The translations under genes and the position numbers were made by a program. From positions 1 through 62,874 of the forward strand of contig JAGCZI010000159.1 of assembly GCA_017960085.1 (NCBI GenBank): 62,874 bases of DNA. The letters run 5' to 3'. The notes beneath the pieces are model-generated. The model was not told where the DNA came from. It saw nothing but the letters and a program-made list of their open reading frames with translations, and did no database searches. Positions 4,659 to 62,639 of this stretch are shown here, piece after piece. How positions within the stretch are numbered: position 1 is the stretch's first letter; every line of letters starts with the position of its first letter. The stretch is from Bacteroidales bacterium. GTDB taxonomy: Bacteria > Bacteroidota > Bacteroidia > Bacteroidales > UBA932.

Positions 4659-4683
4659 ACTGTTGCCACAGAAGGAAATTGAT

Positions 4684-4691
4684 TATCTTTG
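4684..4691 (+). promoter_or_regulatory. Candidate Bacteroidetes -7 promoter box TAnnTTTG (TATCTTTG)
   Basis: Exact match to TAnnTTTG, 5 nt upstream of the ATG at 4697. This would imply a near-leaderless transcript for the oxidoreductase operon. Confidence 0.35.
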
Positions 4692-4696
4692 CAGAG

Positions 4697-5464
4697 ATGA
4701 CTGCACTGATAACAGGTGGAAGCTCCGGGATGGGGCTGGAATTCGCACGGCAACTCGCGGAGCGAGGGTATGATCTGATTCTGGTGAGCAACCGGCAAGA
4801 AGAGCTGGACGCCGCCGCAGAATCGCTGCGCAAACAGTATGCTGTCGCAGTTACCACCCGTTTCCAGGACTTGGCGCAGACAGACTCCGCAGACCTTCTC
4901 TATGCCTGGTGCACAGAAGAGGCAGGAATACTTCCCGACATCGTGGTGAACGACGCCGGGATGTTCTTTTTCAAAGAACTGGAGACTGCCGACCTGGACC
5001 GCGTGCAGGCTATGCTGAATCTGCACGTGACGACGGTGACCCGCGCCTGCATCCTCTTTGGCAACGCCATGAAGGAGCGCGGCAGCGGCTACATCCTGAA
5101 CATGTCGTCGATGGCCGCGCGCTTACCCACGCCCGGTATTACTGTCTATTCCGCCACGAAAGCCTATCTCAAAAGCTTCGGTCATTCCCTCTGGTTCGAA
5201 ATGAAACCCTACGGCGTAGGAGTGACAACAGTCTGCCCTGCAGCCATCGCTACGCCGCTTTACCGTCTCAGCGAAAAGTGGCTGCGCCGGGGCGTACGAA
5301 TCGGCGTCATCCGCACCCCGAAATGGCTTGTAAAAAGGGCCCTCAGGGCGATGTTCCGTGGCCGCCGTGTCATCAGTCCTTCCTTTATGAATATATATCT
5401 TCCTTTCCTCATAGCACTGCTTCCCGCTCCGGTCGAGGCGGCTCTGTGGAAAAAGCTAAAGTAG
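4697..5464 (+). CDS. Short-chain dehydrogenase/reductase (SDR), candidate hydroxysteroid dehydrogenase
   Basis: I chose the internal ATG at 4697 (MTALITGGSSGMGLEFARQLAERGYDLILVSNR, which carries the TGxxxGxG Rossmann motif) rather than the ORF-track start 4586, which overlaps the upstream gene. Catalytic YSATKAYLKSF (YxxxK). Confidence 0.9.
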   Translation: MTALITGGSSGMGLEFARQLAERGYDLILVSNRQEELDAAAESLRKQYAVAVTTRFQDLAQTDSADLLYAWCTEEAGILPDIVVNDAGMFFFKELETADLDRVQAMLNLHVTTVTRACILFGNAMKERGSGYILNMSSMAARLPTPGITVYSATKAYLKSFGHSLWFEMKPYGVGVTTVCPAAIATPLYRLSEKWLRRGVRIGVIRTPKWLVKRALRAMFRGRRVISPSFMNIYLPFLIALLPAPVEAALWKKLK

Positions 5465-5468
5465 CCTT

Positions 5469-6239
5469 ATGTTCAATCCCCACACATTCAACCTCTTCCT
5501 GATAGGTATGGCCATCGTGGCCGCAGTAGTGTTCGTGTCGTTGTTCTTTGTGGACGCCGGCTACGGCAAGTTCTACACAGCCAAGTGGGGCCCGTCGCTT
5601 GACAACCATCTCGGCTGGTTCCTTATGGAAGTGCCGGTGTTTATCGCGATGCTGGCACTCTGGTGGTTCTCCGACCGTCGCGGCGACGGCATCAGGCTGC
5701 TTTTCCTGCTGATCTTCGAACTGCACTATTTCCACCGTTCCTTCATCTTCCCGCTTCAGCTGCGAGGGCACAGCCGTATGCCGCTGAGCATCGTGCTGAT
5801 GGGGGCTGTCTTCAATACCCTCAACGCCTTTATGCAGGGCGGCTGGCTGTTCTACGTCTCGCCTGCCGATTTCTACCCGGCCGGATGGGTCAGAAGCCTT
5901 CCCTTCCTGGCAGGTGTCGTCATTTTCGCAGCGGGGATGTATATAAACATCCAGTCAGACGGCATAATCCGCAACCTGCGCAAGCCCGGAGACACCGCCC
6001 ACTACCTGCCCAAAGACGGTATGTTCCGCTATGTGACCAGCGCCAACTACTTCGGCGAGTTTATGGAGTGGGTGGGCTTCGCCATCCTGACCTGGTCCTG
6101 GGCCGGAGCAGTCTTCGCGCTCTGGACCTTCGCCAACCTGGCTCCGCGTGCCGCCCGTATCTATGACCTCTACAGCCGGGAGTTCCCCGACGAGCTCGAT
6201 ACGAGCCGCGTGAAGCGGATACTGCCGTTCATTTACTGA
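5469..6239 (+). CDS. Steroid 5-alpha-reductase family membrane protein (3-oxo-5-alpha-steroid 4-dehydrogenase-like)
   Basis: 256 aa and polytopic. The C-terminal family signature reads ..RKPGDTAHYLPKDGMFRYVTSANYFGEFMEWVGFAILTWSWAGAVFALWTFANLAPRA. The size matches SRD5A-type enzymes. Only 4 nt separate it from the upstream SDR. Confidence 0.85.
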   Translation: MFNPHTFNLFLIGMAIVAAVVFVSLFFVDAGYGKFYTAKWGPSLDNHLGWFLMEVPVFIAMLALWWFSDRRGDGIRLLFLLIFELHYFHRSFIFPLQLRGHSRMPLSIVLMGAVFNTLNAFMQGGWLFYVSPADFYPAGWVRSLPFLAGVVIFAAGMYINIQSDGIIRNLRKPGDTAHYLPKDGMFRYVTSANYFGEFMEWVGFAILTWSWAGAVFALWTFANLAPRAARIYDLYSREFPDELDTSRVKRILPFIY

Positions 6240-6249
6240 TATCTGCGCT

Positions 6250-7500
6250 ATGAACAATACCGACCCCCAGTCTTCTCCCATTTTTACTCCTGTAACAATC
6301 GGTCCGGTGACGCTGCGAAACCGCGTAATCCGCTCGGCCGCTTTCGAGAATATGGCCTACGGCAACAGCCCTACAAAAGATCTTTATGATTATCACGTGG
6401 CTGTAGCCCGCGGAGGAGTGGGAATGACCACTCTTGCTTATGCCTCGGTGAACCGCAGCGGCCTGTCGTTCGACGGCCAGCTCTGGATGCGCGAGGAGAT
6501 AGTCCCCGGCTTGAAGAAGATAACTGACGACGTCCACGCCGCCGGGGCCAAGTGCTCCATCCAGCTGGGCCACTGCGGCAATATGACCCACCGCGCCACT
6601 TGCGGATGTATGCCCGTAGGCGCGTCGAGCGGGTTCAATCTATATTCTCCTACTTTCGTGCGAGGTCTCAGGAAGGATGAGATAGACTCTCTGGTGGAGG
6701 ATTTCGGCAAGGCGGTGAACCTTGCCCGTGAGGCCGGTTTCGACTGTGTAGAGATCCACGCTGGCCACGGCTATCTGATCAGCCAGTTCCTGTCACCTTA
6801 CACCAACCATCGTCACGATGAGTACGGAGGCTCGCTGGACAACCGTATGCGCCTTATGAGGCGTGTGATAACGAAGGTCCTTGAGGTTGCCGGGGACGAT
6901 ATGGGAGTGATTGTGAAAATGAATATGCACGACGGTTTCCGCCGCGGTATGCAGCAGGCCGAGTGCCTTGAGGTCGCCCGTGAGCTGGAGCGGCTGGGAG
7001 TGCACGCAATAGTGCTTTCGGCGGGATTCGTGAGCAAGGCGCCGATGGAGGTGATGCGCGGGGCGATGCCGCTCAAGACACTGGCCCACTATATGGATAT
7101 GCGCAAGTTCTGGTGGCTGAAAGCCCTGGTCCGCCTTTTCGGCCGGATTATGATTCCCACAGTGCCATACAAGGAAGGCTATTTCCTGGACGATGCGAAG
7201 CAGTTCCGTGCGGCTGTGAAGCTGCCGCTGATATATGTCGGAGGACTGGTGTCGCGCGCAAAGATGGAAGAAGTGCTTGAGGCGGGATTCCAGGGCCTGC
7301 AGGTCGCCCGTGCGCTGGTGCGGGATACGGATTTCGTGAAGAAGCTGCAAAGAGGAGAGATCGACTGCAGCCCCTGCGGCCATTCCAACTACTGCATAGG
7401 CCGTATGTACACTCTCGAAATGAAATGCAACCGCTGTGTCGCAGACCTGCCCCGCAATCTCAGCCGTGAAGTAGAAAAGGCAGAAGAGCGATGGAAATGA
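6250..7500 (+). CDS. Old Yellow Enzyme-family NADH:flavin oxidoreductase with a C-terminal Cys cluster (BaiCD / 2,4-dienoyl-CoA reductase N-terminal-domain-like); candidate 3-oxo-delta4-steroid reductase
   Basis: FTPVTIGPVTLRNRVIRSAAFE and EIHAGHGYLISQFLSPYTNHRHDEYGGSLDNRMR are OYE TIM-barrel motifs. The C-terminal DCSPCGHSNYCIGRMYTLEMKCNRC resembles the 4Fe-4S motif of DCR/Bai enzymes. The protein ends at 416 aa, so it has no FAD/NAD(P) domain. Confidence 0.85.
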   Translation: MNNTDPQSSPIFTPVTIGPVTLRNRVIRSAAFENMAYGNSPTKDLYDYHVAVARGGVGMTTLAYASVNRSGLSFDGQLWMREEIVPGLKKITDDVHAAGAKCSIQLGHCGNMTHRATCGCMPVGASSGFNLYSPTFVRGLRKDEIDSLVEDFGKAVNLAREAGFDCVEIHAGHGYLISQFLSPYTNHRHDEYGGSLDNRMRLMRRVITKVLEVAGDDMGVIVKMNMHDGFRRGMQQAECLEVARELERLGVHAIVLSAGFVSKAPMEVMRGAMPLKTLAHYMDMRKFWWLKALVRLFGRIMIPTVPYKEGYFLDDAKQFRAAVKLPLIYVGGLVSRAKMEEVLEAGFQGLQVARALVRDTDFVKKLQRGEIDCSPCGHSNYCIGRMYTLEMKCNRCVADLPRNLSREVEKAEERWK

Positions 7501-49470: not shown

Positions 49471-50442
49471 ATGAAAACTCCGAAATACATCTTCCCTTCT
49501 GATTATATGGCAGACCCGTCAGTGCACGTGTTCGACGGCAGACTTTATGTGTATCCCTCACACGACTGGGATTCAGGCGTGCCCGAGGACGATCTCGGCA
49601 ACCATTTCAATATGAAAGATTATCACGTGCTCAGCACTGATGACGTGGAAAACGGCGAATTCAAGGATCACGGCGTAATCTTGAAACTGGAAGATATTCC
49701 CTGGGCTAAATGCCATCTGTGGGACTGCGACATCGCCAAGAAGGGTGACAAGTACTACCTCTACTTCCCGGCAAAGGACAAGACCCACATCTTCCGCTGT
49801 GGCGTCGCTGTCGCTGACAGTCCGGTAGGCCCGTTCATCCCTCAACCCGATCCGATAAGGGGATCTTACAGCATCGACTACTGCATACTGGAAGACAAGG
49901 GCGAGTATTATTTCTATTTCGGAGGAATCTGGGGAGGTCAGCTGCAGCGCTACCGCAACAACGACGCCATCGAGCCCATCAAACTTCCGGCCGATGACGA
50001 GCCTGCTCTCTGCCCCAAGATAGCAAAGCTTTCTGACGATATGCTGCAGTTCGCCGAGGCTCCTCGGGACGTGCAGATTCTGGATGCTGACGGCAATCCT
50101 CTCAAGCACGGCGATCCTCACCGCTTCTTCGAGGCCACCTGGGTCCACAAATACAATGGGAAATACTATCTTTCATACTCTACCGGAGACACCCACTTCC
50201 TCTGCTATGCCATAGGTGACAATCCTTACGGTCCCTTCACATATCAGGGAGTAATCCTTACTCCTGTAGTAGGCTGGACGACCCACCACGGCATCGTGGA
50301 GTTCAAGGGCAAATGGTATCTCTTCCATCACGACTGCGTTCCGAGCAACGGTGTCACTTGGCTCCGCAGCCTCAAGGTAGTAGAGCTCGAGTACGAACCC
50401 GACGGCCGCATCAAGACCATCAAGGGAACGGCCGACGTATAA
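49471..50442 (+). CDS. Glycoside hydrolase family 43 beta-xylosidase / alpha-L-arabinofuranosidase (cytoplasmic, Xsa-like)
   Basis: 323 aa with no signal peptide. YMADPSVHVFDGRLYVYPSHD (catalytic Asp block), LWDCDIAKKGDKYYLYF and FFEATWVHKYNGKYYLSYS (Glu). Confidence 0.9.
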   Translation: MKTPKYIFPSDYMADPSVHVFDGRLYVYPSHDWDSGVPEDDLGNHFNMKDYHVLSTDDVENGEFKDHGVILKLEDIPWAKCHLWDCDIAKKGDKYYLYFPAKDKTHIFRCGVAVADSPVGPFIPQPDPIRGSYSIDYCILEDKGEYYFYFGGIWGGQLQRYRNNDAIEPIKLPADDEPALCPKIAKLSDDMLQFAEAPRDVQILDADGNPLKHGDPHRFFEATWVHKYNGKYYLSYSTGDTHFLCYAIGDNPYGPFTYQGVILTPVVGWTTHHGIVEFKGKWYLFHHDCVPSNGVTWLRSLKVVELEYEPDGRIKTIKGTADV

Positions 50443-50452
50443 GTGCCGGATA

Positions 50453-50689
50453 TTATGCTGACTTGCGATAATCGATATAGGAAACTATATCGTTGATCGT
50501 AGTGAAGTTTTTCAGGTCGATGTTGGGAATTGAGATTCCGAATCGGTCTTCGATGCTGCCAACCATTTCTATGAATACGAATGAATCCACACCGGCAGTA
50601 GCCTTGAATGATTTGTCGGTTTCGATTTCTTCAACAGGATAGTCAACATAATCCTGAATGATATCCAGCAATTGGGTTTTAGTATCCAT
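50453..50689 (-). CDS. Acyl/peptidyl carrier protein (phosphopantetheine attachment site)
   Basis: 78 aa from ATG 50689 (MDTKTQLLDIIQDYV..). FKATAGVDSFVFIEMVGSIEDRFGI contains the G-x-DS Ppant serine motif. Starts 2 nt after the stop of the ligase gene. Confidence 0.85.
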   Translation of the reverse strand: MDTKTQLLDIIQDYVDYPVEEIETDKSFKATAGVDSFVFIEMVGSIEDRFGISIPNIDLKNFTTINDIVSYIDYRKSA

Positions 50690-50691
50690 TA

Positions 50692-52425
50692 TTACATAAG
50701 GTTCAGGCCGTTTCCGGAGCAAGTCGAAGGCAGCTGAGTGCGCTTGATCTTGCGGGTCGATGTCTTCTCATATCCGGATTCCGGCAGTTCAACATATTCT
50801 ATTCTCTTGTAATCGGGAAGCTCCGCATTGACCTTCTCCATATCAGCCTTGATGGCGCTAAGGTCTGCGCGGCGTTCAGCGTCGCTGATATACAGTCCGG
50901 CGCAGAGGACTTCGCGGGGAGCGTGTCCCGAATTGTATTCACATTGATAGACGACGATGTCGTCTGCATAGTCGAGATGTTTCTCGATAACGTTCTCCAC
51001 TTCTTCCGGGCAGACATTCTTGCCGTTCTGGAGTACGATTGTGTTCTTCTTGCGGCCCATCAGGAAGATGCGGCCCTCGCTGTCAATGCGGGCGCTGTCG
51101 CCGGTGTTGAAGAAACCGTCCTTTCCGAACACAGCTGCTGTTGCCTCGGGATCTTTGTAATATCCTTTCGCCACGCTCTTTCCCTTTACGCACAGTTCTC
51201 CTATGCCATTCTCATCCACATTGGCGAGTTTCACCTCAAGCCCGGGGCACTGGCGGCCGACACTCAGGTGCTCCTTAAGGGTTTCGGAATTCATTGAGAT
51301 AAGCGGGCCGCACTCGGTGATGCCATAGCCGTTCTGAATGCCGATGCCCAGGTCGTTCAGGCCTTTGATCACGACGGGATTGAGCATCGATCCGCCGCAG
51401 ACAAGCATTGTAAGGCGGCCGCCGAACGGTTCAAATACATCCTTGAACAATTCGTGAGTCTTGTCGATTCCGAACTTGCGGAGCAGGTTGCACAACTTGA
51501 TGCCCTTGCGGAGCTTTTCATCCTTGCCGGCCTTTTTTGCGGCAGCCCAGATGTTGCGGTAGAAAGCAGTGGCTATCATCGGCACGACTGTCACGATATC
51601 AGGCTGGAAGAACTTGATATTCGTCATCATATTGCGCATATTGTCGTTGATGTAGGTCAGTCTGCCGCAACCAATACGGGTCATAATATGTGTGTTGATC
51701 TCCGTCGCGTGATGCATCGGCAGCACGCTCATCGAAGTTTGCTCGCCGACTGTGTGGATGACATCCATACAGTTGATCATATTGGCGGTCAGGTTGGCGT
51801 TTGTCAGCACGATGGCCTTGTTGGCGCCTGTTGTGCCGCTGGTAAACAGTATCTTCGCCGGGGCGTCCAGGTCGAGGTCGATGTTGCGGTATACGCTGTT
51901 CTTTTTAAGTGCCGCTCCTGCCGCTACAAGTTCTTCATAGAAGGGATAGCCTTCGACCTTGCGGTCAATGGTAATGATTGTCTTAAGTTTGCTGCAGGCT
52001 GAGCGGGCCTTCACCAGACGGTCGAGATGGCCGGCGCCGCACATCACGGCGGTTGCATCGCATTTGTCCAGCAGCGTTTCCAGCAGTTCCTGCGGGGCGT
52101 TGACGTCGATGGGGGTGACGACTCCCACTCCGGAAGATATGGTTATGTCGGCTATGACGTATCTCACGCAATTGTCGCTGACAATGGCTACGTGAGCTCC
52201 TGCAAGCCCGGCTGCGAGCAGCCCGTCACCGAGATTCATCACCTCCTCATACAAGTCGTGACAGGTATGATACCTGATTTCTTTGTTTTTGTCGAGTTCG
52301 GCCAGGACAAGTTTGTCGGGAATAATGCTGTTTATGCGCCCCAGCATATCACGGATGCTGCGGTAATCCCCATCCTTGAGGAGGAAGTCGGCTTGTATTT
52401 CACGCTCGGACCTTAACTTTTTCAT
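50692..52425 (-). CDS. AMP-binding (ANL-superfamily) adenylating enzyme, long-chain fatty-acyl-AMP/CoA ligase-like
   Basis: 577 aa. ILFTSGTTGANKAIVL (A3 core), GYGITECGP (A5), FFNTGDSARIDSEGRIFLMGRKKNTIVLQNGKNVCPEEVE (A7/A8) and TSTRKIKR (A10 Lys). ATGA overlap with the upstream condensation gene. Confidence 0.88.
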   Translation of the reverse strand: MKKLRSEREIQADFLLKDGDYRSIRDMLGRINSIIPDKLVLAELDKNKEIRYHTCHDLYEEVMNLGDGLLAAGLAGAHVAIVSDNCVRYVIADITISSGVGVVTPIDVNAPQELLETLLDKCDATAVMCGAGHLDRLVKARSACSKLKTIITIDRKVEGYPFYEELVAAGAALKKNSVYRNIDLDLDAPAKILFTSGTTGANKAIVLTNANLTANMINCMDVIHTVGEQTSMSVLPMHHATEINTHIMTRIGCGRLTYINDNMRNMMTNIKFFQPDIVTVVPMIATAFYRNIWAAAKKAGKDEKLRKGIKLCNLLRKFGIDKTHELFKDVFEPFGGRLTMLVCGGSMLNPVVIKGLNDLGIGIQNGYGITECGPLISMNSETLKEHLSVGRQCPGLEVKLANVDENGIGELCVKGKSVAKGYYKDPEATAAVFGKDGFFNTGDSARIDSEGRIFLMGRKKNTIVLQNGKNVCPEEVENVIEKHLDYADDIVVYQCEYNSGHAPREVLCAGLYISDAERRADLSAIKADMEKVNAELPDYKRIEYVELPESGYEKTSTRKIKRTQLPSTCSGNGLNLM

Positions 52426-53762
52426 AATATGTCAGAGAGTATGCCGGTCGGGTCAGCCAAAACAGCTTCAATGACGTGGATATAGCTGTTATGGAATTCA
52501 ATGAGTTGCTCCGGAGTCACCATACGGGTCTGTACGTCGTAGGAAACTTGTATCTCGTCGGTGTTCACGTCGTGAATCAGTGCCATATAGGTTACAAGTG
52601 CGCCCTTGCCATTGCTGTAGACCTGCATACTGACGCCTTTGGGTGTCGCCATCGGTATGAATGAGAAGCAGAAATTGGTGATCTGGCTCAGCATTGAATA
52701 TTTCCACAACTTGTGCTGCATTGCTTCAACTTCCAGATATGACAGGCGGGTATGCCGGTAGAGTTCATTCTGGTCGGCGTAGAAGTCTGCTATGTTATCG
52801 TTGAATGAGCGGGAGTAATCAACTGTGGTATATACGCTGAGGCTCTGGACTTTGGTGCCGGCGGCACGGCGGTCTGCGACGGTGCCGCGGCAGTTGAGGA
52901 GTTCAAGCGGAAGCTGGTAGGGGGCGCGGCCGTTGCACAGGGACGCAGCGATGGCGCAGGTGTAGAAGAAGAACGAATTCATTGTTACGGAGTTCTCTTC
53001 ACACCACTTCTGGGCAAGACGTGAGATAGCTGCAGGAATTACGAAGCGGTAACCCTTAGTGTCGCAGCGTATCATAAGGTAAGGCAGCGATATGTTCCCT
53101 TTGCGTTTGAACTTGAGCCAGCGGTCATTCGCGTCACCGTGGATTCCGCAATACATAGGCGCCTTGTTGTGGCGGTTCTCATAGTAGTCCTTGAAGAATT
53201 CGTAATCTTTCTTGGTGGCAGCTTCGTCAGCGCGGTACTCATTGTCTTTCTTCAGGACAGTTTCAAAACTGCCGGGTGCTGCGGGGAGTTCAGTACCGTT
53301 GCACAGGGCGTTGTATATGCCCATAAGGTCGTTTACGAGCACTCCGATGCCGTATGTGTCCGCAACCATATGGCTTATCTTGAAAAGGACCATTTCGGCC
53401 CCTGACGGATCAGTGACATACACGGGTTCGAGAACGCGTCCCTTGAAGGCGTCGGTGGGTTTTTTGCGGAAACTCCTCATAAACGAATCCATTGAACTGA
53501 CGCTGTCGAATCTGACAACGGGAATGTTGCCTATCTTACGCTCTGCATCAATGGTCTGAAGGGTTTCCTTCCCTTTTTTGAAGAAACGGATTCGCAAGCA
53601 GTCGTTACGTTCTATTAACAGATTGATCGAACGTGTCATCAGCTCCTTGTCGAAGCCTCCGTCTATGGTAAGTGAGAATAATATGTTAAGGACACGCTTG
53701 AAAAGCGAATATTTCGTCTGCAGGTCTATTATGTCCTGCGAGTAGTTGAATTTCAATTCCAT
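52422..53762 (-). CDS. Stand-alone condensation (C)-domain protein (NRPS C / PapA5-type acyltransferase fold)
   Basis: 446 aa. VLFKISHMVADTYGIGVLVNDL falls at the position of the HHxxxDG catalytic motif (here S-H-M-V-A-D-T). The size and two-lobe layout are typical of C domains. Its start overlaps the upstream gene by 10 nt. Confidence 0.75.
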   Translation of the reverse strand: MELKFNYSQDIIDLQTKYSLFKRVLNILFSLTIDGGFDKELMTRSINLLIERNDCLRIRFFKKGKETLQTIDAERKIGNIPVVRFDSVSSMDSFMRSFRKKPTDAFKGRVLEPVYVTDPSGAEMVLFKISHMVADTYGIGVLVNDLMGIYNALCNGTELPAAPGSFETVLKKDNEYRADEAATKKDYEFFKDYYENRHNKAPMYCGIHGDANDRWLKFKRKGNISLPYLMIRCDTKGYRFVIPAAISRLAQKWCEENSVTMNSFFFYTCAIAASLCNGRAPYQLPLELLNCRGTVADRRAAGTKVQSLSVYTTVDYSRSFNDNIADFYADQNELYRHTRLSYLEVEAMQHKLWKYSMLSQITNFCFSFIPMATPKGVSMQVYSNGKGALVTYMALIHDVNTDEIQVSYDVQTRMVTPEQLIEFHNSYIHVIEAVLADPTGILSDIL

Positions 53763-54598
53763 TTATTCTTGAGTTTTACCAATTCCATATAATCCTGTCT
53801 GTCTACTGGAGTTTTTCCCGTCCTGGAGTTATATTTTGACTCTGCGTATCGGATGATGGCCCGCGCTTCTTCCCTGTCGGAAAGCACTTTCTGCGATGAA
53901 TCCAGCCACGGGACTGAAGCGTTGCCTTCGAAGTACGCGTATTTTGCAGTATTGGATTTGGCCACGGCTGCGTATTTTTCCCTGTTGGACTTGATTATCT
54001 TTTCGCGGTCGGAGGCGTCTTTGTTCCGGTCATAGAGGAGGTTTGCCAGCCAGACAAGAGTCGATATCCTTATTTCGTCCTTGGGGATTTTCAAGGCAGC
54101 CATATATGCATAGCTTATTCCGGCATCGTCTGACTTGAGAGGATGCGGGATGTATACCTGTGACAGGGCCTCCCAGGCTTCGGAGTAATCTGTACGGCCC
54201 AGTTTGTCCAGAATCGTTTCCAGATCGGAAAGGATCTGGCTGGACGCTGCGGCTTGCTGGGGCAGCGGCTTGGTCTGGCAGTCACGGCCTCGGTTGGCGC
54301 TGCGCCACATATAACATTTGTAATTTGAAGGATTGGCCGCTATGCCCTGGTCTGCGGCGGCAATGCCTTGGGCGAACAGGTTGCGTTTGGCGTCCTTGCC
54401 CTCAGCCGCATCGCCGAGCATCAGATATGCCCGAGCAATCCGCCAGCACACTTCAGCTTTCTCTTTGCTGTCGGCAGCTGCAGGCAACATCTTCTGCAGT
54501 TCATCGAGGCTTGCCTTGTAGTCTGCCTTTTGCGAAAACAGGTAGTCCGCATTGGAGAAGTTCAGGGCAAGAAGCACTATGGCCATAATTGTTTTCAC
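53753..54598 (-). CDS. Secreted all-alpha (TPR-like) protein of unknown function, first gene of the C-A-T operon
   Basis: 281 aa. Signal peptide MKTIMAIVLLALNFSNA. Helical repeats such as AEVCWRIARAYLMLGD.. and ..AQGIAAADQGIAANPSNYKCYMW. No catalytic motif recognised. Confidence 0.7.
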   Translation of the reverse strand: MKTIMAIVLLALNFSNADYLFSQKADYKASLDELQKMLPAAADSKEKAEVCWRIARAYLMLGDAAEGKDAKRNLFAQGIAAADQGIAANPSNYKCYMWRSANRGRDCQTKPLPQQAAASSQILSDLETILDKLGRTDYSEAWEALSQVYIPHPLKSDDAGISYAYMAALKIPKDEIRISTLVWLANLLYDRNKDASDREKIIKSNREKYAAVAKSNTAKYAYFEGNASVPWLDSSQKVLSDREEARAIIRYAESKYNSRTGKTPVDRQDYMELVKLKNKWN

Positions 54599-54603
54599 GG
54601 TGG

Positions 54604-54611
54604 CAAAATTA
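54604..54611 (-). promoter_or_regulatory. Candidate -7 promoter box (TAATTTTG on the minus strand) for the C-A-T operon
   Basis: The plus strand reads CAAAATTA. It lies 5 nt upstream of ATG 54598 and 17 nt upstream of the in-frame ATG at 54586. Confidence 0.35.
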
Positions 54612-54674
54612 GCCTATGCTCTCTGCTCGCTTATAAAGATTTGGTAGAAAAGCGCAATATTGTGATAAAAATGT

Positions 54675-54682
54675 TATATTTG
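54675..54682 (+). promoter_or_regulatory. Candidate -7 promoter box (TATATTTG) for the LytTR gene
   Basis: Lies 27 nt upstream of the ATG at 54710. It sits inside the alternative start region (ATG 54671), which favours 54710 as the start. Confidence 0.4.
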
Positions 54683-54709
54683 GGGCCAATTGCAGACAAC
54701 TGGGACGAA

Positions 54710-55537
54710 ATGAGCGCACAGAAGCAAATCACCACAAACTCTTTAAAGCTGCCGGAGCTATATGGGAAATTTACCACTCATCTGTGGTATATGCTTTTCC
54801 CGGCTGTATTTTTCTTCACATTCATAGTGGTTTACAGGCCCTTCGGCAGTGAAGAGATGTTGGATATGGGCAGATCGCTGTTCTTTTTCAACACGGCCAT
54901 AATGATGTGCATCGTGCTTGTTACGACGATAGTTACAAGACTGGTCTATTTCCTTCTGTACAAGTTTGTCAACCACACCTGGTGGGAGTTTTCCGGTTTC
55001 TGTATGCTGGAAATGGTTATCATCACCTACTTTCTTGCACTTTATCTGTTCCTGATGCGCCACGACGGCCGCATTTACTTCGAATATGTCGGCTTGTGCA
55101 CACAGTATTCATTCCTTGTGCTGCTGTTCCCTTATTTCGGGATAACCATAGTGTGCGCCCTGGTCGGCAAAAGAGAGTCAAATCTTGCAGAGCAGAAGGG
55201 ACTTATCCGTTTCAGCGATACTTCCCGTCAGGTCAAGGCGGTGCTTGACAACAAGTCTATTCTGTACATAGAGGCGAAGGACAACTACGTCATCATCTAT
55301 TATCTCGACAACGGCAAGGTCAAGAACTACCAGTTGCGCAATACGATGAATGCGATAGCTCCTCTGGTGGAACCTTATAATATTTTCCGCTGCCAGCGCT
55401 CATATTACGTCAACCTCTCTCACATAAACGCCCTTCGCAAGGACCCCAACGATATGATCAGCGCCGAACTGGACGCTGAAAATATCGTTGTTCCCGTCTC
55501 CCGCAAACTCTACCGCGACATCTCCGCGAAGCTGTAG
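54710..55537 (+). CDS. Membrane-anchored LytTR-family DNA-binding protein (no receiver domain)
   Basis: About 275 aa from MSAQKQITTN.. with four or five TM helices (LWYMLFPAVFFFTFIVVY, FFFNTAIMMCIVLVTTIV, FSGFCMLEMVIITYFLALYLFL, YSFLVLLFPYFGITIVCALV). The C-terminal LytTR domain reads ILYIEAKDNYVIIYYLDNGKVKNYQLRNTMNAIAPLV..FRCQRSYYVNLSHI. The ORF-track start 54368 runs antisense into the neighbouring gene. Confidence 0.82.
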   Translation: MSAQKQITTNSLKLPELYGKFTTHLWYMLFPAVFFFTFIVVYRPFGSEEMLDMGRSLFFFNTAIMMCIVLVTTIVTRLVYFLLYKFVNHTWWEFSGFCMLEMVIITYFLALYLFLMRHDGRIYFEYVGLCTQYSFLVLLFPYFGITIVCALVGKRESNLAEQKGLIRFSDTSRQVKAVLDNKSILYIEAKDNYVIIYYLDNGKVKNYQLRNTMNAIAPLVEPYNIFRCQRSYYVNLSHINALRKDPNDMISAELDAENIVVPVSRKLYRDISAKL

Positions 55538-55571: not shown

Positions 55572-56168
55572 TCAGAATCCGAAACCGCCGCCGAAATCTC
55601 CGCCGAAACCACCGCCGAAACCATCACCGCCGAAGCTGGCGCTCATCTTATTGAAATTGATGGCGAATTCCTGCTCCATACGAAGACGCTGCTCGGTCTC
55701 ATAGTGTCTTTTGTCCTTTTTCCAAGCCTTCAGTTGTTTCTTGTCCAGGATAGTCTGGAGGGCAGTTTCATATTTATCCTGATTCTCCTCCATCTGAGCC
55801 ATCAGGTCCTCCATATCTGCCATCATCGACATCATATTCTGGAAATCATCGTCAGACATCTTTGTGGGGTCGAATTCAGCAGTGCGTGCTTCCTGCCCGC
55901 TACCATCGGCATCCTGCTCAGCTTCCTTGAATTCGTCGGGAACAACTACGGGGTATTTAATCTTGCCGAGGTAAATCTTGTTGAGTCTGAGCAAGCGGGA
56001 AGCCTGATCTTCGTCAAGACCGTATGCGGCTGCCATCTGGTCTGTCTGAGAAGATATTGCCTGATCTGAAAGTTCCTGGGGAGCGGGCATGTTCATGCCA
56101 ATGGGCATCTGCGCATTCGTTACAAACGGAAGAGAAATAAGCGCGAGAATCAAAAATACTTTTTTCAT
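55572..56168 (-). CDS. Secreted protein (DUF4890-like) with an acidic/Met-rich core and a Gly-Phe repeat tail
   Basis: ATG at 56168 gives MKKVFLILALISLPFVTNAQ. The middle is Met/Asp/Glu-rich (DDDFQNMMSMMADMEDLMAQMEENQ). The C-terminus reads SFGGDGFGGGFGGDFGGGFGF. Confidence 0.75.
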   Translation of the reverse strand: MKKVFLILALISLPFVTNAQMPIGMNMPAPQELSDQAISSQTDQMAAAYGLDEDQASRLLRLNKIYLGKIKYPVVVPDEFKEAEQDADGSGQEARTAEFDPTKMSDDDFQNMMSMMADMEDLMAQMEENQDKYETALQTILDKKQLKAWKKDKRHYETEQRLRMEQEFAINFNKMSASFGGDGFGGGFGGDFGGGFGF

Positions 56169-56247
56169 GGTAATAATTTTTATATCTATTGTTTCATTTC
56201 GTTTGCTATAATAGACAAGCGCTTGTGCCGAAAGTTTAAACAAATGC

Positions 56248-56281
56248 AAAAAAAAGAGACACCTGCATCTGCAAGTGTCTC
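56248..56281 (-). terminator. Rho-independent terminator downstream of the tRNA (minus strand)
   Basis: The plus strand reads AAAAAAAA-GAGACACCTGCA-tc-TGCAAGTGTCTC. On the minus strand this is a ~11-bp stem with one mismatch, followed by a T8 run. Confidence 0.75.
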
Positions 56282-59494: not shown

Positions 59495-60067
59495 ATGAAA
59501 AAAAGACTTGTACATACGTCAGCCGTGATACTTTGCATCTTGTGCTTTTCGTGGGGAGAAGCGTCAGCCCAGCGATGGTCTATTGGGACGAATGTCGTGG
59601 ATTACATCAATATGGGAACTTTAAATGCAGAGAGCAGTGTCGCAATCGCCCAGCATTATTCATTCAATGCAGGCATCAGGTTCAATCCCTGGACTTTTAA
59701 CTATGGTGATGTCGACAGACAATTTGAAAACAGGAAGAAGTGTCTGTATGCAGGCGTAAGGTTCTGGCCCTGGCATATCTATTCAGGATGGTGGGCAGCC
59801 CTCCAGCTGCAGTATCAGGAGTACAACCGCGGAGGGGCCTTCATCAAGCAATCCGAAGAGGGGGATGCTTACGGCGTAGGTTTCTCACTGGGATATACTC
59901 TGATGATCCACAAATCGATCAACATAGAGTTCGGAGCCGGAGCGTGGACTGGAGGTGCTGCGTATACGGCATACTCTTGTCCGCATTGCGGAAAGATAGT
60001 CGAACAGGGAACCAAGTTCTTCTTCTGGCCGAACAATGTTATGGTTTCATTGGTATACATCCTCTAG
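59495..60067 (+). CDS. DUF3575-family outer-membrane beta-barrel protein (accessory gene of type V pilus loci)
   Basis: 190 aa with a signal peptide. WSIGTNVVDYINMGTLNAESSVAIAQHYSFNAGIRFNPW. Ends ..MVSLVYIL. The family name is from memory of this conserved N-terminal block. Confidence 0.75.
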   Translation: MKKRLVHTSAVILCILCFSWGEASAQRWSIGTNVVDYINMGTLNAESSVAIAQHYSFNAGIRFNPWTFNYGDVDRQFENRKKCLYAGVRFWPWHIYSGWWAALQLQYQEYNRGGAFIKQSEEGDAYGVGFSLGYTLMIHKSINIEFGAGAWTGGAAYTAYSCPHCGKIVEQGTKFFFWPNNVMVSLVYIL

Positions 60068-60081
60068 CGAAAACACCACCC

Positions 60082-60582
60082 ATGAAAAAGACATACGTGA
60101 CATTATTATTCATTGTGTTAGCCATCAGTCTCTTTCCTCAAGAGTCCAGGGCCCAGTTCGTGTTCGGAATAAAGGGCGGGCTCACGACACTGGCCGGTCT
60201 TGACGGTTGTCTGGCAGGCGGGGCTGTGACGGTGGGAAAACAGATGAAGATGACATCGCTTCAGGCAGATTTCGGTTACTGTCCTGCTGCAGCCAATGTC
60301 GACCTGTCTTGTCTGTTGAGGATATACGGAAACAAAGATCACTCAACTGATGTATATCTCGGCGCGGGACTGACAGCAGAAATAAGGTTGCACGATGCAG
60401 GGAAGAATGAATTGATGGCAGGAGCATTCCCGGTATTGCAGGCAGAACAATTCATATCAAAGCGTATTTCCCTGTATGCAGATGTAAGGACGCCCTTTAT
60501 GTTTTTTATGGATGAAGACAGGATGTCTGCCCGTTTTGCTGCGGGAATCAGATGTCTTTTGTATAAGGAGGAAAAACGATGA
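60082..60582 (+). CDS. Small outer-membrane beta-barrel protein
   Basis: ATG at 60082 gives MKKTYVTLLFIVLAISLFPQESRAQFVFGIKGG.. (166 aa) with alternating hydrophobic strands. The ORF-track start 59740 overlaps the previous gene in another frame. Confidence 0.7.
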   Translation: MKKTYVTLLFIVLAISLFPQESRAQFVFGIKGGLTTLAGLDGCLAGGAVTVGKQMKMTSLQADFGYCPAAANVDLSCLLRIYGNKDHSTDVYLGAGLTAEIRLHDAGKNELMAGAFPVLQAEQFISKRISLYADVRTPFMFFMDEDRMSARFAAGIRCLLYKEEKR

Positions 60583-62639
60583 GCAGACTGTTTGATAATA
60601 TGATAATTGTCGTAATGCTGCTTGCAGTGTGCCTGCCTGCAGAAGCCCAGAGTGAAGGCTCTTCTGCCAGAGGCGGAAGGGATAGCTGGACCAGCGTCTA
60701 TGAATATTGCCGGGACAGCATCTATCGCGTCAGGAACCCCCAGGGGAAGCTCGATGCGATAAGGGAGAACAACACGAATGCCGGCATATCACTGACCAAT
60801 GAAAGCCAACTGCCGGATCTGGAGTACCGCTCAAAAATGAAGGATACACTTCAGATACTGGACATTTATGGCCGCCAGACTTTCCTGATGAAAGCTGTCA
60901 GGGATGATGAGACAGGTGAAATGCTGGCCAATGAAGTTCTTGATGCCGCAGTTGTTTCCGCCCGTTTCAGAAATGTGGCTGAACGTAACGGCAAGGTTGC
61001 AATCCGGTTCGACATCCTGGTTCCGCACAGTATGATGGACAACAAATGGCAACTCCGCTTCGATCCTGATTTGTATATTCTTGACGACAGCGTGCGCCTC
61101 GCCCCTGTGATTATAACGGGCGAAGGATATCGGAAGGCACAGCTGCGGGGGTATCAGCAATATGAGCGATTCCTTTCCAGAATCGTTTCGGACACAACGG
61201 CATTCATCAACATCCGGCAGCTTGAGCTGTTCATCGAACGTAACATACCTCAGTTGTATGCTTTCAAGAAAGATTCGTCAGAGGTGTCAGATGAGTTGTT
61301 CTATTCGTATTACGGCATCAGCGAGGCTAAGGCTGTTGAACATTATACCAACAAACTGGCCCGCAAAAGGAATCACTATCGTATGCTTATGAAGCAGAGG
61401 ATGTACGAAAAGTATGTGAAAGCGCCTATCGTTACAGAAGGAATCCGTCTGGATACGGTGCTGGTTGATATGAACGGCGATTTCACTTACTGCTATTCCC
61501 AGCAGATAGACACAAGGCCGAAGCTGAGAAAGGTGGATATAGTCTTGTCCGGGGCGATTTATGAGCAGGAGAAAAAACTGTATTCCATCCCACGGGGCGA
61601 ACCGCTTTCTTTTTACATCTCTTCTGTCTCTATGTTTGCCGACCAGACGGAAAGATACCTGACTAAAGTGGTGGAAAGGAAGGTCAGTGCAAGTGCTTCG
61701 TATGATATAGTTTTTCAAGTCGCAAAAGCAGATGTGAGAAGTGACCTTGCAGGCAATGCAGAGGAGATAGGCAATATCAAGCAGCAGCTGGTCAGTCTGA
61801 TTGGGAACGAGGTTTTCGAGCTGGATTCGATACGGGTGACGGCAACGGCTTCACCGGAAGGGAAGTACAGGCAGAATGAAAAGCTTTCCCAGAGGCGTTC
61901 TGAATCCGTTTCGAAATACTTCCGCTCGTGGATGAGACACTATCGGGACTCCCTTGAGTCAGCAAGGGGATTCAGCGTCGATGAAAACGGCAGGATGGTC
62001 AAAGAATCAGTGCCTGAAATTGCTTTCCAGAGTGACATATATGCGGAAAACTGGAAAGGACTTGACGAACTGGTCGGTACCGATGTAAACCTGTCAGAAG
62101 AAGATAAACGGAATTATTACAGTCTGGCAGAAATCGAAGATTCTGACGACAGGGAGTCAAGGATGAAGCAGCAAGCTTATTACAAATATCTCAAGGATGA
62201 GCTGTATCCTAAGTTGCGTACCGTTTCGTTTGATTTCTATCTGCACCGCAAAAGTATGGCGAAGGACACTGTTCACACAACAGTTCTGGACACAGTCTAT
62301 ATGCAAGGTGTGGAAGCTATCAGAGAGCGCGATTATGAGGTTGCCCTGATGTTGCTGGCGCCTTACCAGGATTACAATACGGCAGTGGCATATGTCGCGT
62401 TGGACCGGAACCGGAGTGCACTGGACATACTGAGCAAGTGCGAGCAGACTGCGCAAGTCAATTATCTGCTTGCCCTGCTCTATTCCAGGCTTGGAGATGA
62501 GACGAAAGCAGTACAACACTATATGACTTCCTGCAGCCAGGATCAGTCATTTGTCCACAGGGGTAATCTTGACCCTGAAATATCAGCGCTGATTGCGCTT
62601 TATGGTCTGAACAAAAGAGAAGACGAAGACATTTATTAA
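60579..62639 (+). CDS. DUF3868-like protein with an OmpA-like peptidoglycan-binding motif and C-terminal TPR-like repeats
   Basis: 686 aa with a signal peptide. VTATASPEGKYRQNEKLSQRRSESVSKYF matches the OmpA-C-like pattern (ASPEG..N..LS.RR...V). The C-terminal helical repeats read ..AIRERDYEVALMLLAPYQDYNTAVAYVAL.. ATGA overlap with the upstream gene. Confidence 0.75.
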   Translation: MSRLFDNMIIVVMLLAVCLPAEAQSEGSSARGGRDSWTSVYEYCRDSIYRVRNPQGKLDAIRENNTNAGISLTNESQLPDLEYRSKMKDTLQILDIYGRQTFLMKAVRDDETGEMLANEVLDAAVVSARFRNVAERNGKVAIRFDILVPHSMMDNKWQLRFDPDLYILDDSVRLAPVIITGEGYRKAQLRGYQQYERFLSRIVSDTTAFINIRQLELFIERNIPQLYAFKKDSSEVSDELFYSYYGISEAKAVEHYTNKLARKRNHYRMLMKQRMYEKYVKAPIVTEGIRLDTVLVDMNGDFTYCYSQQIDTRPKLRKVDIVLSGAIYEQEKKLYSIPRGEPLSFYISSVSMFADQTERYLTKVVERKVSASASYDIVFQVAKADVRSDLAGNAEEIGNIKQQLVSLIGNEVFELDSIRVTATASPEGKYRQNEKLSQRRSESVSKYFRSWMRHYRDSLESARGFSVDENGRMVKESVPEIAFQSDIYAENWKGLDELVGTDVNLSEEDKRNYYSLAEIEDSDDRESRMKQQAYYKYLKDELYPKLRTVSFDFYLHRKSMAKDTVHTTVLDTVYMQGVEAIRERDYEVALMLLAPYQDYNTAVAYVALDRNRSALDILSKCEQTAQVNYLLALLYSRLGDETKAVQHYMTSCSQDQSFVHRGNLDPEISALIALYGLNKREDEDIY

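Follow-up and report, generated by a model that had tools for sequence, protein, structure and literature searches.

The sequence examined here, which we call the window, covers positions 1 to 62,874 of contig JAGCZI010000159.1 of a Bacteroidales bacterium, and all coordinates refer to it unless a locus is named. It carries an operon of four minus-strand genes that encode a TPR-like protein, a free-standing condensation (C) protein, an adenylating ligase and an acyl carrier protein (ACP), with the gene of a LytTR-family regulator facing away from them on the other strand. We think it probable, with some room for doubt, that these five genes make up a regulated synthase module for N-acyl amides (fatty acid amides, FAAs), in which the logic of the FAA pathway has been adapted to the double-membrane Bacteroidales host. 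The features discussed below are as follows.

53753..54598, minus strand: 281-residue all-alpha TPR-like protein, from a GTG start at 54598 (277 residues from the ATG at 54586)
52422..53762, minus strand: 446-residue free-standing C protein (PF00668)
50692..52425, minus strand: 577-residue ANL-family adenylating ligase (PF00501)
50453..50689, minus strand: 78-residue ACP (PF00550), its length counted from the ATG
about 54710..55537, plus strand: LytTR-family regulator gene, divergent from the operon, with an alternative ATG start at 54671
54599..54709, between the LytTR and TPR-like genes: divergent control region with two -7 boxes and phased repeats

The four genes of the operon are closely packed. 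The TPR-like and C genes overlap by 10 nt (ATGGAATTGA, read from the sequence), the C and ligase genes overlap in an ATGA, and the ligase and ACP genes meet at TAA-TA-ATG, with a gap of 2 nt. The mechanical open reading frame (ORF) call begins the ACP at an upstream TTG and gives it 89 residues, as against 78 from the ATG. A convergent GH43 gene (49471..50442) ends with its stop codon 10 nt from that of the ACP, and no intrinsic terminator was found at the 3' end of the operon. Upstream, a -7 box of the Bacteroidota type faces the operon (TAATTTTG, 54611..54604). An earlier inspection of the letters by a model, made without database searches (the sequence-only reading), had described the four minus-strand genes with these three junctions, a promoter box at 54604 and an end against a convergent gene, and all of this reads as it was claimed. 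Two other statements in that description fared less well. The operon had appeared AT-richer than its surroundings; at 51.1% GC, compared with 52.6 +/- 1.8% in segments of the same size from the window, it lies at the 18th percentile, which is within noise, and GC at third codon positions (GC3) is similar to that of the neighbouring genes. Horizontal transfer, considered on the grounds of base composition, is therefore unsupported. The ACP gene is the only AT-rich gene of the operon, with 39.7% GC and a GC3 of 0.47, against about 52% and about 0.6-0.68 in the rest of the operon and the window. The second statement was that the unit comprises four genes. The conserved divergent LytTR regulator, present in 27 of 32 loci (see below), belongs to it as well, and the unit is one of five genes.

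The 446-residue protein matches the Pfam Condensation family (PF00668, E 9.6e-23, residues 23-440), as the sequence-only reading had supposed, and its catalytic motif, SHMVADT, occupies residues 130-136. By sequence, its best match in the PDB is OaaC (12KH; 68.7 bits, E 4.5e-18, residues 22-442), followed by PvdL with 42.7 bits and by other C domains of nonribosomal peptide synthetases (NRPSs), none above 43 bits. Compared as a pair, the window protein and OaaC are 22% identical over 438 residues (E 1.7e-22), about the level that OaaC has with most other stand-alone C proteins (25-30%). The 12KH entry is the free-standing C domain of the FAA pathway of Coprococcus eutactus, and biochemical work has established that OaaC joins acyl-ACP with free amines into fatty acid amides (PMC13310621). 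In this pathway, known from gut Clostridia, the A protein and the ACP are each stand-alone; the former charges the latter with a fatty acid, which the C protein then joins to a free small amine (PMC13310621; PMC10871352; see also the acyl-putrescine preprint, bioRxiv 10.64898/2026.08.24.746719). Published examples include OaaA/OaaACP/OaaC of Coprococcus eutactus and the ecf/ebf clusters of Enterocloster (PMC13310621; PMC10871352).

Relatives of the window C protein are numerous, 4932 in an exhaustive search of representative sequences and 48 at E <= 1e-30, and they are arranged in graded shells of stand-alone proteins of about 450-470 residues, with 59%, 34-40%, 28-33% and 25-27% identity. The sequence-only reading had proposed that the subtype of the protein be classified by phylogeny. 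A quick neighbour-joining (NJ) tree was built from 81 stand-alone C proteins and 41 C domains cut out of multimodular NRPSs. In it, the smallest clade that encloses both the window protein and OaaC contains 73 stand-alone proteins and 0 of the 41 modular domains. The FAA C clade has been reported as sister to the starter C domains, with a motif logo of (D/H)HxxxD(S/A/G), and no FAA-specific residues that could be transferred to the window protein are named in the text of that report (PMC13310621). Stand-alone C proteins carry xHxxxD followed by a residue other than Gly; among the 81, S or C is commonest at the first position and SHxxxDT occurs in 7, whereas 34 of the 41 modular domains have HHxxxDG. 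The window protein keeps the catalytic His and Asp while other residues stand in place of the first His and last Gly, as they do in FAA C domains, and in the alignment H131 and D135 are invariant across the clade. An AlphaFold2 (AF2) model (pLDDT 82.5) shows the full two-lobed C fold, with a TM-score of about 0.78 to the solved C domains of CDA-C1, RzmA (starter C), LgrA and SrfA-C. These comparisons lead to the prediction of an amide-forming enzyme whose donor is an acyl-ACP and whose acceptor is a free amine. Assignment as a PapA5-like or canonical C-type acyltransferase was considered and rejected, given that the motif is SHMVADT and not HHxxxDG and that there were zero PapA5-like proteins among the PDB sequence matches.

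The ligase is an AMP-binding protein (PF00501, E 4.3e-54) in which the core motifs that had been noted for the ANL family were all located: A3 TSGTTGANK (195-203), A5 GYGITE (366-371), A7 NTGD (440-443), A8 GRKKN (457-461) and A10 STRKIKR (556-562). For comparison we used an OaaC-type Clostridial locus, L010, whose layout is the published Clostridial one of hydrolase, C, ACP, phosphopantetheinyl transferase (PPTase) and AMP-ligase (cf. PMC10871352), and whose C protein (P0291) is 38% identical to OaaC. The homology of the ligase and of the ACP to FAA clusters was measured against L010 rather than against OaaA and OaaACP themselves. The window ligase is 31% identical to the L010 ligase over its full length (E 1e-70), a stronger match than to any ligase in the PDB, where it comes closest to the solved structures of luciferases, MenE, FadD5 and 4CL (4-coumarate ligase). 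In L010 a gene for an Orn/Lys/Arg decarboxylase (4509..6659) follows directly after the AMP-ligase, and it is plausible that this enzyme supplies a diamine acceptor from within the cluster; the window has no such gene.

The sequence-only reading had likened the ligase to the fatty-acyl-AMP ligases (FAALs). The acyl-CoA-ligase side of that assignment stands and the FAAL side does not. An alignment with luciferase (residues 361-513) revealed no FAAL-specific insertion between A5 and A8, the window ligase being in fact 6 residues shorter there, and FAALs were absent from the PDB matches at E <= 1e-20; identity with FAALs of the FadD32/FadD28 type was rejected on both counts. The one insertion, of about 27 residues, lies elsewhere, at about 293-320 between A4 and A5, which is not the FAAL site; it is common to the 575-residue ligases of the Clostridia type and absent from the 508-residue OaaC-type ligase.

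What the ligase loads is the point on which a different reading of the operon would turn. If the acid were aromatic, short-chain, branched or an amino acid, the product would be a non-lipid amide and the C protein would have a VibH-like or aminoacyl-transfer role. The scores leave some space for this idea, which we nevertheless regard as unlikely: the ligase falls under the curated cut-off of every NCBIfam model and scores also against MenE, 4-coumarate ligase, malonyl-CoA synthetase and luciferase, overall similarity cannot reveal the substrate range of an ANL enzyme, and phenyl-substituted and short-chain acids abound in the rumen. However, the best models are those of long-chain fatty-acid ligases, with 194 bits (long-chain-fatty-acid-CoA ligase PRK06187, cut-off 476) and 157 bits, and the amino-acid adenylation model gives 125 bits against a cut-off of 317. 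In the closest related system whose chemistry is known, fatty acids are activated; the carrier belongs with the ACPs rather than with carriers of the peptidyl, aryl or DltC type; and the fold neighbours of the accessory TPR-like protein bind lipids. The ligase is thus predicted to be of the acyl-CoA-ligase type, activating a fatty acid and loading it on the adjacent ACP.

The carrier matches PP-binding (PF00550, E 8.3e-14), has its phosphopantetheine site at GVDS (Ser36), the site expected from the sequence-only reading, and resembles the ACPs of fatty acid synthases (FAS) and polyketide synthases in a comparison with the PDB. It misses the cut-offs of all AcpP equivalogs. The best of these gives 51.7 bits where 84 are required, so that the carrier is distinct from the housekeeping AcpP, in agreement with what had been proposed, and a housekeeping AcpP/FadD pair was rejected for the operon as a whole, all scores being under cut-off and the genes being kept together with the C gene. 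Two DltC models reach 25.2 bits (cut-off 68) and 17.6 bits (cut-off 52). On these carrier scores, together with those of the ligase, a Dlt D-alanylation or aminoacyl system was rejected, and no DltB/DltD-like gene is present in the neighbourhood within the window. The sequence-only reading had allowed for acylation or aminoacylation of an amine or a hydroxyl. Acyl transfer to an amine is most likely, and aminoacylation appears unlikely because of the shortfall in the adenylation and DltC models.

It was of interest to ask how these genes are arranged elsewhere. The gene arrangement recurs in dozens of independent loci from metagenomes and metagenome-assembled genomes (MAGs), far beyond what chance would produce. 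We scored 46 de-duplicated loci of the Bacteroidales clade (55-96% identity in the C protein), each gene being counted where the flanking sequence sufficed, with the following result.

Ligase gene beside the C gene: 31 of 32 testable loci
ACP gene beside the C gene: 29 of 31 testable loci
TPR-like gene upstream of the C gene: 30 of 34 testable loci
LytTR gene, divergent and adjacent: 27 of 32 testable loci (45-55% identity)
Second, paralogous C gene: 4 of 46 loci

The close relatives are Bacteroidales MAGs from samples of rumen, omasum and other herbivore gut, among them the complete MAG CAMVOD01 with a locus of 96% identity. A scan of genome contigs with a single protein yielded three close relatives only, and the breadth reported here comes from a metagenome scan with look-ups of gene context. 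Because the flanking genes vary between lineages, the module from LytTR to ACP is itself the conserved unit. In L028, L031, L042 and L048 the TPR-like gene is absent and the locus consists of LytTR-C-A-ACP only, and some lineages can thus carry out the core chemistry without the exported protein. Some loci possess a second C gene, 52-56% identical to the window C gene and placed before or after the TPR-like gene (L004, 4769..6118; L005, 1948..3297; L020, 1972..3300; L022, 3769..5094; L047, 700..1998 and 2940..3656); such pairs suggest two acceptor specificities served by one common acyl-ACP. In L012 (6001..7350), a Sphaerochaetaceae MAG, a lone C gene with 37% identity lies beside an adenylate kinase gene, without an adjacent ligase or ACP.

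Beyond the Bacteroidales there is a closer shell of bare C-A-ACP trios, whose named relatives are all Clostridia MAGs; here the identities are 40% for the C protein, 57% for the ligase and 51% for the ACP (that of L007). L008 contains another such trio, with a C identity of 36-37%, and the ACP of L010 is 24% identical to that of the window (E 2e-9). As judged from protein identity, a graded series of C-A-ACP trios (C 36-40%) links the Bacteroidales and FAA-type groups. Neither the TPR-like gene nor the LytTR gene was found in any of the non-Bacteroidales trios examined.

The same data bear on the possibility that the ligase and ACP serve only to salvage exogenous fatty acids, as an acyl-ACP synthetase that feeds membrane lipids, with the C protein inactive or incidental. 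Acyl-ACP synthetases of the same superfamily do exist, among them AasS (cf. PMC12208996), and the window ligase resembles acyl-CoA/ACP ligases. Against salvage, the C gene is always present and tightly coupled, and H131 and D135 are invariant across the clade. Further, the ACP is a dedicated paralog below the AcpP cut-offs, and the duplication of the C gene in some loci argues for selection on the condensation step. We find the salvage explanation scarcely credible.

The sequence-only reading had described the product of the leading gene as an exported TPR-like protein, and an all-alpha model and a signal-like segment at the N-terminus agree with this. The AF2 model (pLDDT 93.2) has 13 helices. 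The N-terminus begins with M-K, followed by about 12 hydrophobic residues and a conserved (A/V)-D boundary, and lacks a lipobox Cys; this pattern suggests export by Sec with cleavage by signal peptidase I, and the protein is probably exported. Nothing significant was found for it with phmmer against the PDB. Its best natural fold matches are the TPR domain of PTPIP51 (7cc7, E 4e-4) and BstC (7t1s_B, TMq 0.56, TMt 0.67), and its homologs bear precomputed Pfam tags for PF21033 (RMD1-3, the PTPIP51 family). BstC, an exported and all-helical member of the TatT family, is associated with the outer membrane and binds sterols in a hydrophobic tunnel at its centre (PMC10942540), and phospholipid binding and transfer have been reported for the TPR domain of PTPIP51 (PMC10243591). 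BstC/TatT and PTPIP51 (RMD3) share with the 281-residue protein a similar size and an all-helical TPR-like fold, but the identity is only 12-14%, with marginal E-values, and BstC is encoded with a sterol-transport system whereas the 281-residue protein is encoded in a biosynthetic operon. At one further site (L066, 6001..9795) a TPR-like homolog with 37-40% identity lies 7 nt upstream of a gene for a 967-residue fused ABC_tran/ABC2_membrane transporter; this site shares its TK, TP_methylase and HHH_3 neighbours with L006 (6019..10101), where the TPR-like gene precedes C-A. Taken together, the fold neighbours, the PF21033 tags and the homolog paired with an ABC-2 exporter suggest, short of proof, that the 281-residue protein is a candidate periplasmic carrier of a lipid or another hydrophobic ligand.

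An exported partner also invites the thought that acylation is directed at the envelope, be it at lipid A, an amino- or hydroxy-lipid, a lipoprotein or a capsular sugar, in line with the AlmEFG-, Dlt- or PapA5-like logic of the sequence-only reading. The C protein would then be an O- or N-acyltransferase acting on a membrane-bound acceptor, with the TPR-like protein as its scaffold or chaperone. C-family enzymes such as PapA5 do esterify lipids, the 10-nt overlap ties translation of the C protein to that of the exported protein, no amine-supplying gene is linked, and a regulator embedded in the membrane could sense the state of the envelope. On the other hand, OaaC, the closest characterised relative by sequence, uses free small amines. 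Signal peptides are missing from all three core proteins (C protein, ligase and ACP), which places the chemistry in the cytoplasm, and a DltB/DltD-like or AlmG-like partner and a flippase are all absent. If the exported protein were essential to the chemistry, it would not be expected to be missing from 4 of 34 loci that keep LytTR-C-A-ACP. Acylation of the envelope is therefore an improbable role for the operon in our estimation, and synthesis of a free N-acyl amide remains the reading that we prefer.

The regulator has a C-terminal LytTR DNA-binding domain (PF04397, E 7e-15), preceded by no receiver domain, and four transmembrane (TM)-like segments by hydropathy. In the control region that separates it from the operon, a second -7 box faces the LytTR gene (TATATTTG, 54675..54682), and its position favours the LytTR start at 54710. 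In more than 30 loci the two opposed TAnnTTTG boxes are held at a constant offset of 69-71 nt, even where the proteins have diverged to about 40% identity. In the various loci the start codon follows the operon-facing box after 12-26 nt, which implies an mRNA with little or no leader. Between the boxes is a phased element, TTn(A/G)TCA(C), of which the window has one strict copy, TTTATCAC, near 54660. Across 17 control regions TTnRTCA was counted 25 times, compared with 1.75 +/- 1.3 in shuffled sequences (about 14-fold), and the cores fall at fixed positions, -4, +16, +36 and +48 from the LytTR-facing box. No direct repeats were found in the control region of the window alone, and the phased element emerged only from the comparison of 17 loci. 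LytTR domains typically bind direct repeats about 20 bp apart. The phased repeats are thus a candidate operator array, to which we infer that the LytTR protein binds.

A circuit may be imagined on this basis, in which the N-acyl amide is a diffusible signal, the TPR-like protein its periplasmic shuttle, and the LytTR protein a direct sensor of the lipid, or of its fatty-acid or amine precursor, through the TM domain, with feedback on both promoters. We consider such a circuit decidedly doubtful. If it did exist, it would be an autoinducer-type (quorum-sensing-like) system of Bacteroidales made from NRPS-like parts, and it would offer a route to lipids resembling host-active ligands of G-protein-coupled receptors (GPCRs) in rumen and gut Bacteroidales.

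How, then, does the module compare with systems of known chemistry? The sequence-only reading had seen a dissociated system that loads, carries and condenses but lacks an elongation module, a thioesterase and a reductase, and the domain content agrees. It had not recognised in it any characterised lipid pathway of the Bacteroidota, which is still the case, but the system does have a precise relative in the C/A/ACP pathway of gut Clostridia. The analogues that it had named, AlmEFG, Dlt and FadD28/PapA5, are more distant from the window system than is the FAA pathway, and the window system belongs to none of them. Both the window and the FAA pathway have three adjacent free-standing proteins (C, A and ACP) and lack a thioesterase, a reductase and a second module. 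The trio is homologous, with the C protein 22% identical to OaaC and the ligase and ACP 31% and 24% identical to those of L010; the C proteins fall in one stand-alone clade and have replaced the first His and final Gly of the motif; and the ligase is of the fatty-acid type, the carrier of the ACP type and the habitat the gut. The differences are also clear. The host is a Bacteroidales of the rumen and herbivore gut rather than a Clostridia, the motif is SHxxxDT in place of the FAA logo, and the ligase is the 575-residue form with the insertion of about 27 residues, which the 508-residue OaaC-type ligase lacks. Clostridial FAA clusters include a PPTase, a hydrolase and an SCP2-like lipid-transfer protein, and the window operon has none of the three. 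It has instead the exported TPR-like protein and the divergent membrane LytTR regulator, with promoters of the Bacteroidota type, neither of which is matched by anything in the Clostridial loci that were looked at. The lipid-transfer protein of the Clostridial clusters, which is similar to those of mammals and unrelated to the TPR-like protein (PMC10871352), may be the functional counterpart of the latter. As far as homology can tell, the core is an FAA-type C/A/ACP trio in another phylum, with two conserved parts added to it.

Other known systems are instructive at single steps. VibH is a stand-alone C protein that joins a carrier-bound acyl donor to a free small-molecule amine; it differs in that its donor is an aryl (dihydroxybenzoyl) group on an aryl carrier protein, within the siderophore NRPS pathway of vibriobactin. 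It was not among the PDB sequence matches of the window C protein at E <= 0.01, and OaaC has been compared with it (PMC13310621). Starter C domains (RzmA Cs, CDA-C1) and the acyl-accepting C domain of PvdL take a fatty-acyl donor and are the next-best neighbours in sequence and fold after OaaC, but they are situated inside multimodular NRPSs, use an aminoacyl peptidyl carrier protein as acceptor and have the canonical HHxxxDG. The N-acyl synthases (NAS, hm-NAS) make N-acyl amides in human-associated bacteria that include Bacteroidota (Cohen et al. 2015, 2017, cited in PMC10871352). Their enzymology is unrelated to that of the window: a single acyltransferase uses acyl-ACP from FAS, with no ligase, dedicated ACP or C domain. 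The FAA pathway of gut Clostridia reportedly goes back to a founding paper by Chang et al. in Nat Microbiol in 2021. In the limited literature searched, in which the pathway is described only from Clostridia, we found no earlier report of an FAA-type cluster from the Bacteroidota or the rumen.

Several observations weigh against an N-acyl amide synthase. The C protein is only 22% identical to the sole C protein of this kind that has been characterised biochemically, and its SHxxxDT departs at both the first and last positions from the published logo. The NJ tree that joins the two proteins is a quick one, rooted at the midpoint and made without bootstrap or a curated set of subtypes. The fold matches of the TPR-like protein are marginal (E 4e-4 to 2e-3, TM 0.5-0.67), and TPR folds match many proteins; the protein has no significant family by hmmscan against a local copy of Pfam, and the lipid-transfer role of the PTPIP51 TPR domain is itself debated (PMC10243591). 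The control region of the window holds a single strict copy of the repeat, and part of the enrichment across loci may stem from the shared descent of related control regions. Lastly, a PPTase, an amine-supplying enzyme and an inner-membrane exporter are all unencoded in or near the operon. The sequence-only reading had proposed that the co-occurrence of the genes be mapped and a PPTase located. The synteny of the trio with the TPR-like and LytTR genes was mapped in Bacteroidales loci as described above, and no PPTase was found among window ORFs of at least 80 residues by phmmer with the L010 PPTase as query, a weak test in view of the rapid divergence of Sfp-type enzymes.

With these points in mind, a mechanism may be outlined for N-acyl amide synthesis. 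The 577-residue ligase would adenylate a fatty acid, probably of medium or long chain and possibly taken up from outside. The acyl group would then move to the phosphopantetheine arm of the 78-residue ACP, the arm having been installed by a PPTase encoded elsewhere. With this acyl-ACP as donor, His131 of the SHMVADT motif in the 446-residue C protein would catalyse attack by a small, freely diffusing amine, and the amide would be released with no need of a thioesterase. In the periplasm the exported TPR-like protein might handle either the hydrophobic product, in export, or the incoming fatty acid, in import. The membrane LytTR protein would bind the phased repeats between the promoters and control both its own gene and the operon. 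The ligase and C steps are predicted from homology to the biochemically characterised system, and it is by analogy with that system that the substrates are taken to be a fatty acid and an amine and the chemistry to yield an amide rather than an ester. The parts suggested for the TPR-like and LytTR proteins derive from fold similarity, gene linkage and the conserved architecture of the DNA.

Some features of the surrounding DNA may be added. Just past the LytTR gene, at 55572..56249, is a gene for a DUF4890 protein with a Gly/Phe-rich C-terminal tail (GGDGFGGGFGGDFGGGFGF), which is not kept beside the module in other loci. Further along, 59495..62639 contains a DUF3575 gene and then ORFs of 280 and 686 residues without a Pfam match; these are possibly a Bacteroidales surface or fimbrial-type cluster, unlinked to the operon. 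A role of the operon in anti-phage defence was also considered and rejected, as PADLOC gave zero matches.

The operon is about 4.1 kb long, or about 5 kb with the regulator, and is thus small enough to be synthesized and expressed with ease, while regulatory experiments could start from the conserved architecture of promoters and repeats. The free-standing C/A/ACP pathway yields fatty acid amides that act as potent ligands on human GPCRs, and a link between these amides and inflammatory bowel disease has been drawn. A Bacteroidales module of this kind would extend FAA chemistry to the other dominant phylum of the gut and to the rumen, and it would place a second N-acyl amide route in the Bacteroidota, in addition to that of the N-acyl synthases. 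Its TPR-like and LytTR parts bear on two questions left by the Clostridial systems, namely how a hydrophobic amide leaves a cell with two membranes and how its production is controlled.

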